Source of the DNA: Escherichia coli
GTDB lineage: Bacteria; Pseudomonadota; Gammaproteobacteria; Enterobacterales; Enterobacteriaceae
Direction: 5' to 3' (one strand)
DNA: 64,000 nucleotides
Assembly (NCBI RefSeq): GCF_003334765.1
Contig: NZ_QOWT01000011.1
Numbering within the stretch: the first letter of the stretch is position 1; the number at the start of each line of letters is the position of its first letter. A program made the translations under genes and the position numbers. The notes under the pieces were generated by a model. That model ran no database searches. It saw only the letters and a list, made by a program, of their open reading frames with translations, and was not told where the DNA came from. Of this stretch, positions 56,044 through 60,375 are shown in pieces.

Positions 56044-56760
56044 TCACAAGTAGACTACGCTTATCACAGCTTTCCCATCAAGTTCGATTTTTTCTGAACC
56101 GCCTAAATCATTCGCGATAGATGCGCTCACCTGAAGCGGTATAATGGCGTTCGTTACAGGAGTTGGGGTTGTTTCACCTGGTTTTACAAAGGTGTAATAA
56201 TAGCTTTGATCGACTGCAAGCGGATAAGCGGTGAGCGTTTGCCATGCTCTTTTTTGCCCTGTTATGACGGCATCTGCACCTGCTATTGATACAGCTAACG
56301 TCTGGCTACCATTGCTGGCACTAATGTTGTTGCTATCAATTAACACGGCATAACTACCGATATTTTTATTATCTTTTGTTTTCCCTAAGCCGAATAAGCG
56401 CGTTGTCTGGCTAATATAACCTCCGCCATTTAAGGTATATTTTACACCACTCTGACCCCCACTATCTTTTCCGGTGGTCATACTATCCATTCGTGTATCA
56501 CGAGCGGTAATCGCAATGCCGGTAGCGGATTCGCAAGTTATAGTCATATTAATATTACGTGTTCCAATCTGTGTGTAGTGCTGCGTTGAAAGTCTATTGA
56601 CTGAATGACTACCGAAGTTAACAACTCCGCCGTTGCTTAGTATTGGAGTACAAGCTGCAGCTTCCAGAGTCACCTTAACGTCAATTGATACTCTATCAGC
56701 GGCTTGCGCTGACATGGCAAAAAAGGCACTTCCGGCAATCAGTAATTTTACATTGTTCAT
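56044..56760 (-). CDS. yhcF: Secreted DUF1120 / fimbrial-like protein (GltF paralog)
   Basis: 238 aa ORF with signal peptide MNNVKLLIAGSAFFAMSAQA; C-terminus ...KIELDGKAVISVVYL resembles GltF ...TIKLDGNVTISVQYL. Confidence 0.85.
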   Translation of the reverse strand: MNNVKLLIAGSAFFAMSAQAADRVSIDVKVTLEAAACTPILSNGGVVNFGSHSVNRLSTQHYTQIGTRNINMTITCESATGIAITARDTRMDSMTTGKDSGGQSGVKYTLNGGGYISQTTRLFGLGKTKDNKNIGSYAVLIDSNNISASNGSQTLAVSIAGADAVITGQKRAWQTLTAYPLAVDQSYYYTFVKPGETTPTPVTNAIIPLQVSASIANDLGGSEKIELDGKAVISVVYL

Positions 56761-57308
56761 TTTGCCTCCACCAGGACCGTCAGATTGCCTGTAATATCTG
56801 TCATGTCGGTTAGTTCCCCTTCATCCTTAAAAGCTGGAGCCATTGTCAGTGTGAGGCTAACGCTTTTACCGCTATCAATTACCACTTCTTGACCATTTTG
56901 CATAAACACCAGCCAATTATTGGGGGAAGTACTAATTGATGCTGTTCCTGTGCTGCCCGGATTGTCATTTTTGCCACTGGCTAACGCCAGGTCGAGATTG
57001 TTACTACCTGAAAATGCATCGCTGGCGATCAGATTTAATGAACCATTCGGGCCAAATCCAAATCCGTTGTTGGAAATATTAGCGGTATTCAACTGAACAC
57101 GAATATGAGCGTCCTGATCGCATTGCATTACCAGCGTGATTGTTCTGTCTGCTAATTGTGTTGTTTTACCCCGGTCAACTTGGCGCATGGCAGCACTTCG
57201 TTTGCCATAGTCGATATTTTGTATGCTACTGGAGATATTACACTCTGCCTGAGCGGCCATGGCGAAGTTCAGCAGCAGGCATCCTGTTATTATCCGTTTC
57301 ATTGGCAC
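56757..57308 (-). CDS. yhcE: Secreted fimbrial-like protein, intact reading frame
   Basis: 183 aa ORF with signal peptide MPMKRIITGCLLLNFAMAAQA; overlaps the yhcD stop and yhcF start. Confidence 0.75.
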   Translation of the reverse strand: MPMKRIITGCLLLNFAMAAQAECNISSSIQNIDYGKRSAAMRQVDRGKTTQLADRTITLVMQCDQDAHIRVQLNTANISNNGFGFGPNGSLNLIASDAFSGSNNLDLALASGKNDNPGSTGTASISTSPNNWLVFMQNGQEVVIDSGKSVSLTLTMAPAFKDEGELTDMTDITGNLTVLVEAK

Positions 57309-59680
57309 TCTCCTGTTGCTGTCTCATAGAACACATCTTTTGGTGCATCTTCTGGGAATGTAAGGTGAATACGGCATGATTGCTGCTCATCTTTTATATC
57401 TAGCACCATGTCCGGTTTGATGTTATTGAGGAATACAACACCGTCATCCACTGATGTTGTCAGATAGTTGCCTTCACTATCTTCAATCGCAACGCCTCTG
57501 GGCAGTTTTTTGCCGTCGGAAAGTGTGATATTGAGTAATGCACGGCGTTGTGTTATCGCACTGAATCCGACTTTCCCTACTGCACCACGGCCTTGTTTGA
57601 TCATTTTTGTGCCGTTACCGATATCGACATTTTTTGGCAAGCTGGCGGTATCGATCTCAACTCCTGATGTTCGCCACGGCTGGATTGATGGAATGACGGC
57701 ATTACCCCGAAAATCTGTCCATACTGGGCCTGCCTGAGATGTAATTCTGACACCTGCAATATTGTTATCCATTTTTGCGATGGCGAAAGTGTCATTGATA
57801 GTCCACGGTGAAAAGGTCACTCCCTGATCATGTACGGCAATACCACCTGACATCGTACCGTTGTAAGTACGGCTATCACTGCCGCTTGCTCCTGCGGCAA
57901 GGCTGACTTGGGTGTAATGGAGATTGGAACTGATACTGCCGTTCAAGCTCGTTTCACGTTCGTCGTGATCTCGTTCAGCATTCACATAGTAGGACATCTC
58001 ATCTGAGACGACTCCCATGACACCAGTACCATAGTGGGTTTTATGATCGTCATGGCGAGTATACAGTGTGGCGGTGTTTGATCTGCCAAATGGAATACTG
58101 ATGTTGACGTAGAACAGATCACCATCGTCTTCATTATTTTCTGAAGCACTAAGTTGATGCTGCCAGTTGACGGAAACCGTGGCGTGTTTGAACGCTTTGT
58201 TCCAGTTAATATTAAGGTTGCTTGAGTCATTGTCACCGTCGTAACTATATGTTTTATAGCCACTGATGTTGAAACCACCCAGAATGGAGTTAGACCAGTT
58301 TAAACCAAGCGCATAAGTGCTTTTAGTCGGATCGGTATAATCATCATCAATCGCTTCAGACAGTTCGCGATAATGGCGATCAGATCGAGTGAGGCTGGTT
58401 GTTAGCCCAAGTGAAAATGGGAGATTGTAGTTCGCGTCAAGACGATATTTCTGTCCTTGCAGTGAGTCTTTCGTATCCTGCGATGTACTAATTTGGCTGC
58501 TCACTGTTAAATCGGGCAGGGGAACCAGACTCGACCGGATTGATGCCGCCTGATAATTTTCTGCTACGATAACGCCGCCGTTCATTGCACTCCAGCGTGT
58601 CAGATTCCATCCGCTCGATGCACTAATTACCCAAGGTGATTCGTCATAGTCATCGTCTACCCGCCCTATCGCGAAGCGATAACCCTGGAAGCTTTCTACA
58701 TGCTGATTAAACAGGGTGGAGGGAACAATATAGTTGTGCGAACTACCGTCTGTTTCGACAACGGTGACATTAAGATCACTATTACCATTGCGAACAGGTA
58801 CATCAGGGATAGTGAATGCGCCCGCAGGAACCAGAATGGAATGAATTAAAACTCCTTGTTGACGAATCTCGACACGAGCCTGAGAGGTGTTGGCTATACC
58901 AGTAACTTGCACACCACTGCCGCTGGTTTGCAATGCGTTGTCCGGTGCGATTTCGATACCGTAAATACTGGCTCCTTCCAACACGCTATTATTGAGGTTA
59001 ACTTCACCTGCTCGCATGAGTGTTTTAAGATCTGTAAAGGTACGTTGAAGGTAGGTTGACGAGTTCTGGTTACTGAATGTGCCATTTGTTTGTGTAAGGA
59101 ACTGATGGCTGCGTAACATCCAGTCATTAATATTAATCCCGCCTTCAAGTGCAGCCTGGGAGTAGTCCGAACTCCCATTAGAAAATTCTGCACGGCTGCT
59201 CATCAGAGAGTAGTTTAGCAGCGCAGCTGTTCCACCAGTTGCTGCGTTTGTGAGATCCAACCCTATGGGAATGATCGCCTGTGGTGAAACGATAATATCT
59301 AACGCTTCCTGGTTAGGTAATGGTGTGATTGTGGTACCCGGGTAGGACAATATATAGTCGTAACAGCCATTTTTTTCTTCAGAAGGAATTTTTAAACCGG
59401 CTTGTTGCAGAAATGCCTGATCAAGACAAATGTCGCCATTTTCATCAAAGCGCGTAGCAATGTTGCCTTTTTTTTCGCCATTTACTGATACTATCAGTGA
59501 ATATTCACCTGGCAAAAAACGGGCTGAACGGGAAAAATAATGCGATATATTAGGATCTACACCTAGTGATTTTAATGTTTCCCGATCAAAATCAACAGCG
59601 GCAATCTCTATACCATCTGCATTGGCTGGGGGAGAAAAGGCAAAACCAATGGTGTAGGCCAGTAACGTTTTTTTTAACAT
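57299..59680 (-). CDS. yhcD: Outer-membrane fimbrial usher (chaperone-usher pathway)
   Basis: About 793 aa ORF from MLKKTLLAYTIGFAFSPPANA; usher size, beta-rich composition, C-terminal Cys pair. Confidence 0.88.
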   Translation of the reverse strand: MLKKTLLAYTIGFAFSPPANADGIEIAAVDFDRETLKSLGVDPNISHYFSRSARFLPGEYSLIVSVNGEKKGNIATRFDENGDICLDQAFLQQAGLKIPSEEKNGCYDYILSYPGTTITPLPNQEALDIIVSPQAIIPIGLDLTNAATGGTAALLNYSLMSSRAEFSNGSSDYSQAALEGGININDWMLRSHQFLTQTNGTFSNQNSSTYLQRTFTDLKTLMRAGEVNLNNSVLEGASIYGIEIAPDNALQTSGSGVQVTGIANTSQARVEIRQQGVLIHSILVPAGAFTIPDVPVRNGNSDLNVTVVETDGSSHNYIVPSTLFNQHVESFQGYRFAIGRVDDDYDESPWVISASSGWNLTRWSAMNGGVIVAENYQAASIRSSLVPLPDLTVSSQISTSQDTKDSLQGQKYRLDANYNLPFSLGLTTSLTRSDRHYRELSEAIDDDYTDPTKSTYALGLNWSNSILGGFNISGYKTYSYDGDNDSSNLNINWNKAFKHATVSVNWQHQLSASENNEDDGDLFYVNISIPFGRSNTATLYTRHDDHKTHYGTGVMGVVSDEMSYYVNAERDHDERETSLNGSISSNLHYTQVSLAAGASGSDSRTYNGTMSGGIAVHDQGVTFSPWTINDTFAIAKMDNNIAGVRITSQAGPVWTDFRGNAVIPSIQPWRTSGVEIDTASLPKNVDIGNGTKMIKQGRGAVGKVGFSAITQRRALLNITLSDGKKLPRGVAIEDSEGNYLTTSVDDGVVFLNNIKPDMVLDIKDEQQSCRIHLTFPEDAPKDVFYETATGECQ

Positions 59681-59700
59681 CCTTGTCGCTCCAGGCAAAG

Positions 59701-60375
59701 TTATTTTAAGTCAGTGACATATTTATTACCGCGATAACCATATCGGCTGGCTGGGTAAAACTCGACTTTTGTATCCGTAGCGTTTGTTAATGCAGTAGTT
59801 GTACTGGTGTGTGGTAGAAAATAGGTCTTATTTATAGCCCCCGTTTTTCCTGAAGGGAGCGTTTTAAATTGTAAGGTCATACGAACGACATAATTACTGG
59901 GGTTGCTAATCTCAATTTGGTCGCCATTTTTACGCCATTCCAGGAATTTCCAGGTCTCTCGCTCTTCCGGCAGGGAAGCCGGGTGGATCAGTACAGGTAG
60001 ATCCTGACGAATTGAAACAGTAACTCTGCTGCTCTTGTCATCTTTTGGTGGAATACCTTCGAACGTTACGCGTTTCAGCTCTTCTGATTGCAGAGGAACA
60101 GTCGCCTGAAGTAAAAATCGAACCTGTTGTACTTGACCGGCTTCAACACGAATAACGGGCTGAGTCGGGATTAAACGAATTGATTTATTGCTTTCAGGCA
60201 AATCAACAATGGTGGTGTAAAGCAATGAAGGATGATCATCTGTATTCTTAATATTAATACTAGCTTCACCACGCTTTTCATCAACCAGCAATACTGATGT
60301 TTCAGGAACCATCCCTGTGGCTAAGGTATTCATTGATGTTGTTATAAATACAGTGAATGTAATGTGTCTGAGCAT
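59701..60375 (-). CDS. yhcA: Periplasmic fimbrial chaperone (PapD-like)
   Basis: 224 aa ORF with signal peptide and PapD-like fold features; directly upstream of the usher. Confidence 0.88.
   Translation of the reverse strand: MLRHITFTVFITTSMNTLATGMVPETSVLLVDEKRGEASINIKNTDDHPSLLYTTIVDLPESNKSIRLIPTQPVIRVEAGQVQQVRFLLQATVPLQSEELKRVTFEGIPPKDDKSSRVTVSIRQDLPVLIHPASLPEERETWKFLEWRKNGDQIEISNPSNYVVRMTLQFKTLPSGKTGAINKTYFLPHTSTTTALTNATDTKVEFYPASRYGYRGNKYVTDLK

Follow-up and report, generated by a model that had tools for sequence, protein, structure and literature searches.

An uninterrupted Yhc (beta-class) chaperone-usher cluster in an Escherichia coli close to K-12, and YhcE as a candidate tip subunit completed by YhcF

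Analysis of a 64-kb stretch of Escherichia coli DNA (the window, to which all coordinates refer) revealed that the segment from 56044 to 60375 carries all but one gene of the known five-gene Yhc chaperone-usher fimbrial cluster, gltF-yhcA-yhcD-yhcE-yhcF, which belongs to the beta class. The host is a phylogroup-A-type E. coli very near K-12, and its copy of the cluster has the natural, uninterrupted form and is free of the insertion sequence (IS) IS5 that splits yhcE in the K-12 reference strain MG1655. On balance, and with moderate confidence, we favor a combined reading in which the IS5-free cluster encodes a fiber with YhcE at its tip, completed by the N-terminal strand of YhcF, on a shaft of GltF. 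The locus, its disruption by IS5 in K-12 and its intact state in phylogroup A are correctly described here and have already been published. What may be novel, as a modest inference, is the view of YhcE as a tip subunit that lacks a donor strand and forms a split adhesin with YhcF.

All four genes of the segment are on the minus strand and appear in the list of open reading frames (ORFs) where the original prediction had placed them. yhcA (59701-60375) encodes a periplasmic PapD-like chaperone of 224 residues and yhcD (57299-59680) an outer-membrane usher of 793 residues. yhcE (56757-57302) encodes an uninterrupted 181-residue protein with a pilin fold and no donor strand, the predicted tip subunit, while the product of yhcF (56044-56760), the predicted adaptor, is a DUF1120 subunit of 238 residues that bears a signal peptide and, at its N terminus, an extension of 17 residues (ADRVSIDVKVTLEAAAC). 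The claim that these genes make up a four-gene operon holds for the four genes themselves, but the operon was drawn one gene short: its fifth member and first gene, gltF (60547-61311, minus strand), lies outside the interval. This gene, which Del Canto et al. also counted within the Yhc locus (PMC5216030), encodes a DUF1120 subunit of 254 residues, probably the major one, which has a signal peptide and is extended at its N terminus by 19 residues (TDSTDTELTIIGEYTPGAC).

Two of the mechanically called ORFs are probably slightly too long. The longest frame for yhcE (56757-57308) comprises 183 residues from a GTG codon; an ATG at 57302, giving 181 residues, is the more likely start because AGGAG is located 9 nt upstream, the Prokaryotic Genome Annotation Pipeline (PGAP) uses it, and all homologues begin with MKR. 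Likewise, the longest yhcD frame (57299-59698) gives 799 residues from a TTG codon, and the PGAP start, an ATG at 59680 preceded by a ribosome-binding site, gives 793. Both yhcD/yhcE and yhcE/yhcF overlap by four bases (ATGA), which suggests that each pair is translationally coupled; yhcA and yhcD are separated by 20 nt.

The encoded proteins place the cluster in the beta class. YhcD scored 1273 bits against the usher subfamily model NF011832 (cut-off, 723), aligned to profile positions 1-801 of 801, and has no internal stop, as expected of a full-length usher gene. YhcA scored 319.7 bits against the chaperone subfamily NF007392 (cut-off, 183) and is thereby a PapD-like chaperone, whose relatives of solved structure, as detected by HMMER, are Caf1M (E = 1e-10), DraB, CupB2 and PapD. 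YhcF and GltF are both DUF1120 proteins (Pfam, E = 2.3e-47 and 1.8e-45, respectively) and are 30% identical to each other (E = 6e-26); a sequence search of solved structures with GltF returned nothing meaningful, as did a literature search for DUF1120. The cluster contains secreted subunits with the incomplete Ig-like pilin fold and N-terminal donor strand of chaperone-usher systems. The usher, which shares its accession with that of MG1655 and passes NF011832, is of the YhcD/StjB clade, and the DUF1120 subunits occur in the beta-class order subunit-chaperone-usher-YhcE-like-subunit. The same order is found in E. albertii, E. ruysiae, E. coli GF43 and one metagenomic contig.

The chaperone also carries a hallmark of the class. 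In the HMMER alignment, a Pro of YhcA is opposite the Lys of the Caf1M motif IKLLVRP, and the Arg position falls outside the aligned stretch. Comparing by eye ETSVLL of YhcA with ESRIIY, the corresponding Caf1M segment, would place a Ser at the Arg position. YhcA therefore has no classical Arg8/Lys112-type anchor, in keeping with beta-fimbrial chaperones, which are reported to lack the classical carboxylate-anchoring residues and to have non-classical ones instead (PMC4654587).

The historical name gltF, from a "gltBDF operon" with GltF as a nitrogen regulator, and the position of the gene beside gltD would suit a function with glutamate synthase and would leave the four-gene operon complete. 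We consider this highly improbable. GltF is a secreted DUF1120 protein related to YhcF at the identity given above, and its gene lies within a genomic island that is missing from about 79% of E. coli genomes, all of which keep gltBD. Furthermore, gltF and gltD are separated by a 559-bp AT-rich spacer with a strong hairpin, and related clusters elsewhere start with DUF1120 genes before the chaperone gene.

Comparison with MG1655 bore out the original statement that yhcE of the reference is a pseudogene split by IS5, which disposes of the possibility that the reference is itself intact. The MG1655 locus (L001) aligned to the window in two pieces, both of which include CTAA at 56932-56935, and the 1195-bp insert between them, at about codon 125, has the terminal inverted repeats of IS5 and is annotated with its transposase. 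In the window this tetranucleotide, the empty IS5 target site that is duplicated around the element in K-12, occurs once within a continuous frame, so that the gene is not the K-12 yhcE::IS5 pseudogene; the continuous ORF described originally is thereby confirmed, with 181 residues from its likelier start. Apart from IS5, the MG1655 yhcE is identical to the window copy, and YhcD, YhcA, YhcF and GltF have the same protein accessions in both. Over 8.5 kb, the only other differences are three single-nucleotide polymorphisms, and at 99.97% identity the genes can be equated with those named in K-12. The entire 64 kb differs from MG1655 by about 25 substitutions, IS5, and a 92-bp repeat-length difference at 31384-31616. 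Many unrelated isolates from humans and animals share the final 25 kb of the window essentially unchanged.

The uninterrupted form has been seen before. Del Canto et al. (2017) described a five-gene beta-class Yhc locus without an IS in phylogroup-A enterotoxigenic E. coli (ETEC), found that intact YhcE matched 353 database entries, and called its function unclear (PMC5216030); the missing IS5 was also noted in the 2019 genome paper on E. coli C (bioRxiv 10.1101/523134). We surveyed 5,426 complete E. coli genomes and found the cluster in 1156-1164 of them (~21%), always at 99% identity or above. The yhcE sequence was present in 1142 genomes and uninterrupted in about 783, a number that counts in a few IS1 cases and is thus a maximum; the split copies that we sampled were from K-12 laboratory derivatives. 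An uninterrupted yhcE is thus the usual natural state. Beyond the species, all five genes are present and intact in E. albertii and E. ruysiae, at the same locus between gltD and the nan operon and with equal or nearly equal lengths (yhcE, 181 residues; yhcD, 793-795), which indicates that the IS5-free form is ancestral. The original prediction had offered a strain without the insertion and the ancestral state as alternatives, and both are supported: the window comes from a close K-12 relative, and its uninterrupted form is the one usual in natural copies and seen in E. albertii and E. ruysiae.

An intact cluster need not be a working one. The genes could be silent and decaying, a remnant from which no surface structure is made under natural conditions, with their open frames due to recent phylogroup-A ancestry. 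Much within E. coli agrees with this: because all copies are at least 99% identical, intactness inside the species says little; the island is missing from most genomes, and many carriers have IS1, IS2, IS3 or IS5 insertions; and truncated yhcF variants, a premature yhcD stop in one strain, and the lack of an adherence phenotype have been reported (PMC5216030). Nevertheless, we regard this alternative as unlikely. Against it stand the retention of all five genes at one locus and at (near-)equal lengths in E. albertii and E. ruysiae, the absence of insertions or deletions in the YhcE family across 48-84% identity, and the ratios of nonsynonymous to synonymous substitution rates (dN/dS). In the seven gene pairs with estimable dS, dN/dS relative to the window was 0.05-0.22 (0.16 for yhcE against E. 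ruysiae), while dS in the Yhc genes ranged from above 0.6 to saturation, compared to 0.28-0.36 in the adjacent gltD. These ratios indicate that the E. albertii and E. ruysiae orthologues have been under purifying selection, and they lend support to the earlier suggestion that the operon could be functional.

Divergence from the two species is also mosaic. When window 56044-61311 was compared with loci L011 and L012, yhcE and yhcF were 78-86% identical to E. ruysiae and 59-69% to E. albertii, while gltF, yhcA and yhcD were 78-83% identical to E. albertii and 62-74% to E. ruysiae. This pattern suggests old allelic lineages, with a tip module and a shaft/usher module that have recombined. It fits a surface-structure locus that is old, under selection and recombining, and that has been lost from most lineages of E. 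coli, rather than a dead remnant.

We next consider YhcE, whose AlphaFold2 model was confident (predicted local distance difference test score [pLDDT], 91; predicted template modeling score, 0.82). In a Foldseek search with this model, all seven matches with E below 1e-3 were chaperone-usher pilins. The question of whether the yhcE ORF has any homology to fimbrial subunits is thereby answered in favor of a pilin-like protein, by fold and by natural fusions to DUF1120 domains, and not by a significant Pfam match. We also asked how these data bear on a location outside the fiber, as a periplasmic or secreted accessory protein. This is improbable: the best structural matches are pilins of chaperone-usher systems specifically, the C-terminal strand motif of YhcE (GNLTVLVEAK) parallels that of GltF (GNVTISVQYL), yhcE sits between the usher gene and a subunit gene and is translationally coupled to both, and a YhcE-like domain is fused to a pilin domain in 13 representative clusters.

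The mature N terminus of YhcE distinguishes it from the other subunits. Its 19-residue signal peptide is followed directly by Glu-Cys (AQA-EC). C23 and C63 are invariant in the family, the conserved Cys lies 1-5 residues after the AxA cleavage motif in most of 66 members, and a longer N-terminal segment is seen in only about five. YhcF, by contrast, has 17 residues (ADRVSIDVKVTLEAAAC) and GltF 19 (TDSTDTELTIIGEYTPGAC) ahead of the equivalent Cys, with the alternating hydrophobic residues of a donor strand. In donor-strand exchange, a subunit that accepts a strand and does not donate one sits only at the distal tip. Because the mature end of YhcE leaves no room for a donor strand, the predicted place of YhcE is at the tip, as a subunit without such a strand. 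A different position in the fiber, either as a terminator or anchor like PapH or as an ordinary minor shaft subunit, is marginally less probable still than a location outside it, since a terminator or shaft subunit has to supply an N-terminal strand to the subunit before it, which neither YhcE nor most of its relatives could do. In addition, the YhcE-like domain of the natural fusions is the N-terminal, distal one.

A 2025 interactome preprint (10.1101/2025.05.07.652715) labels yhcE a "UPF0056 membrane protein" and lists FimC, YfcS, YraI and YqiH as its predicted partners. We disregarded the label, which does not suit a secreted all-beta protein; fimbrial chaperones as predicted partners fit a pilin-like subunit.

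Natural relatives link YhcE to YhcF. In 13 cluster representatives of 374-398 residues, a YhcE-like domain without an N-terminal extension is followed by a DUF1120 domain that ends ...LDGSATIEIVYL. When mature YhcE and mature YhcF were joined, they aligned with these fusions without gaps across the junction, and the YhcF extension fell on the interdomain linker of the fused relatives. One fusion gene comes directly after an usher gene, in the order DUF1120, DUF1120, chaperone, usher, fusion, DUF1120, and, as in E. coli, the gene for a stand-alone YhcE homologue overlaps the DUF1120 gene after it by 4 nt. A model of YhcE and YhcF as a single chain reached a pLDDT of 94, with GltF and two GF43 DUF1120 proteins, which had aligned to the YhcE half, left out of its alignment. 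The chain order in this model is the last strand of YhcE (149-159), a three-residue turn, and the strand of the YhcF extension (164-174), from which we infer that the extension would pair with the last strand of YhcE.

Whether YhcE and YhcF constitute a naturally split two-domain tip adhesin, with the completing strand supplied in trans in Escherichia and in cis, through a covalent linker, in the 374-398-residue fusions, is to our minds an evenly balanced question. If they do, beta-class fimbriae would have a tip subunit, contrary to a published suggestion, and the two forms would show that donor-strand exchange and self-complemented two-domain adhesins can interconvert in evolution.

The assembly scheme that we propose for the Yhc locus follows general chaperone-usher biology. 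GltF, YhcF and YhcE would be exported by Sec and held in the periplasm by YhcA, which would lend each a strand, and the usher YhcD would polymerize them at the outer membrane via donor-strand exchange. The YhcA-YhcE complex would be the first to reach YhcD, YhcF the next, and the GltF polymer the last. YhcE would accordingly start assembly and occupy the distal tip, where it would probably bind a receptor. The N-terminal extension of YhcF would fill the groove of YhcE, with residues ADRVSIDVKVTLE expected to run antiparallel to its last strand, and GltF, from the first gene, would form the shaft. The AT-rich upstream region probably keeps the cluster silent under laboratory conditions. In K-12, insertion of IS5 at about codon 125 would remove the C-terminal third of YhcE and probably lower yhcF expression, and loss of the proposed tip subunit would render the K-12 copy inert. 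The treatment of that copy as cryptic would be explained by these two effects.

Several observations weigh against this scheme or against parts of it. At the level of sequence, YhcE matched DUF1120 in Pfam only at a non-significant E of 0.12, a YhcE profile found no meaningful relative among solved structures, and BLASTP aligned it with YhcF only over the signal peptide and first strand (E = 0.017); the sequence by itself is not enough to identify YhcE as a subunit. The single chain used for the YhcE-YhcF model is artificial and its alignment includes natural fusions, the pairing of the two strands comes only from secondary structure and chain order, and GltF instead of YhcF might be the complement of YhcE. 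Deletion of yhc in ETEC 100664 left adherence to Caco-2 cells unchanged, and no beta-class fimbria has a demonstrated fiber, adhesin activity or condition of expression (PMC5216030). Assembly of Yhc may also differ in its details from that of type 1 and P pili, given a chaperone without the classical Lys anchor; because of this, we do not assume that Yhc resembles Fim or Pap in every respect. With regard to expression, a promoter scan detected 10 promoter-like sites where 14.7 were expected from shuffled sequence, and the H-NS literature for gltF and yhcA yielded only a SELEX (systematic evolution of ligands by exponential enrichment) table with a weak signal within yhcA. Finally, as about 79% of complete E. 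coli genomes have no island, it is dispensable.

Despite these points, the tip reading of YhcE has practical value. It gives yhcE a concrete and testable role as a donor-strand-less tip subunit completed by YhcF, and it predicts why the K-12 copy would be inert; the IS5-free allele is therefore the starting point for characterizing the beta class, the only "classical" chaperone-usher class without a known fiber, receptor or structure.

The non-coding DNA around the genes is partly as first described. The operon had been said to be flanked by very AT-rich DNA, which is correct for the upstream spacers between gltF and yhcA (30% GC) and between gltD and gltF (32% GC) but not for the region downstream of yhcF (~42-45% GC). 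The gltD-gltF spacer (61312-61870, minus strand; 559 bp) is presumably the regulatory or promoter region, and both upstream spacers look, by their base composition, like H-NS targets. The promoter-like sites at 61363-61390 and 60398-60427 do no more than match the consensus. A terminator scan gave five terminator-like sites where 5.0 were expected. The gltF-yhcA spacer contains a 12-bp hairpin (60463-60494, minus strand; z = -3.1 for the 150-nt fold) that is possibly an attenuator or an mRNA-stability element 3' of the major-subunit gene.

The cluster lies on a 5880-bp island (55989-61868) between gltD and yhcG that begins 2 bases past the gltD stop codon and has a GC content of 43.1%, compared to 50.5% for the window. 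Its flanks were present in every one of the E. coli genomes searched. In genomes without the island, as alignment of loci L004 and L005 to the window showed, either 53 bp replace it and lead from gltD to the DNA upstream of yhcG, or, as in an O25:H4 strain, gltD is followed directly by nanQ. A sensitive distant blastn search for diverged island alleles in E. coli found none, every match being at least 99% identical. The island is a frequent IS target, with search matches showing IS1, IS2, IS3-family and IS5 elements in gltF, yhcD, yhcE or yhcF of different strains. At the same gltD/yhcG site, E. coli GF43 (L006, NZ_CP172127.1, 6509-11811) has another, distantly related beta-class cluster, its genes arranged in the same order. 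It has no detectable DNA similarity to the window, its usher, chaperone and YhcE-like protein are 35%, 39% and 26% identical to their counterparts, and it was found in one of the 5,426 genomes. The site therefore looks like a hot spot for beta-class clusters.

The neighboring yhcG (54732-55859), which encodes a PDDEXK nuclease (DUF1016), also varies across strains. It is absent from the O25:H4 locus (L005) and from the other genomes with only 51% query coverage, truncated beside an IS3 remnant and a group II intron in L002, and reduced to a frameshifted remnant adjoining a transposase gene in L006. Just downstream of gltD is a 25-bp palindrome with a perfect 11-bp stem (ATTCGCCAGACAnnGTCTGGCGAAT, 61831-61855); the surrounding 61820-61875 folds with -20.1 kcal/mol (z = -4.65), and the palindrome is kept in island-less genomes. 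A second copy with two mismatches occurs at 55532-55556 within the yhcG coding region, none being expected by chance, and a compensated variant (ATTCTGCAGACACTGTCTGCAGAAT) is located at about 54690-54716, just after nanQ. Genomes without yhcG and the island have one copy, between the convergent nanQ and gltD. Since the copies bracket the variable segment, they may mark points of insertion or deletion. Elsewhere in the window, the 92-bp difference from MG1655 is located in the repeat-containing tldD-yhdP spacer, which is longer in the window and looks like a difference in short-repeat copy number.

Among known systems, Stj, with the usher StjB, is the only known beta-class fimbria of Salmonella enterica subspecies enterica (PMC9238391). 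It shares the usher subfamily model NF011832 with Yhc and is likewise uncharacterized, but belongs to a different genus and presumably a different locus. YhcE gave a weak match to NF011829, and YhcF and GltF gave weak matches to NF011830/NF011831 (55-107 bits against cut-offs of 226-337); these hypothetical-protein models, numbered beside NF011832, are ones that we assume to be derived from Stj.

Two-domain tip adhesins such as FimH, PapG, LpfD, CupB6 and CfaE are single polypeptides in which a distal domain without a donor strand precedes a C-terminal pilin domain. This form is found here in the 13 related cluster representatives, whereas the window encodes YhcE and YhcF in two ORFs, each product having its own signal peptide. 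The distal domain, YhcE, would be attached by donor-strand exchange rather than covalently, and it is pilin-like, unlike FimH with its distinct lectin barrel. SafD, AfaD/DraD and AggB, the single-domain tip or minor subunits of polyadhesive fibers, have no sequence relationship to YhcE, and their systems use FGL-type classical chaperones, whereas YhcA has no classical Lys anchor. With archaic and alternate systems such as Csu and Ecp, the beta-class chaperone shares non-classical anchoring residues (PMC4654587), but usher phylogeny places the beta class with the classical systems (PMC9238391, PMC4654587), and the Yhc subunits are DUF1120 proteins while those of Csu/Ecp type are SCPU or EcpA. 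The closest counterparts are the Yhc clusters of K-12 and ETEC, of the beta class in the usher classification of Nuccio and Baumler. They consist of the same genes: the K-12 cluster differs only by the 1195-bp IS5 in yhcE, and the form published for ETEC and E. coli C does not differ from that of the window.

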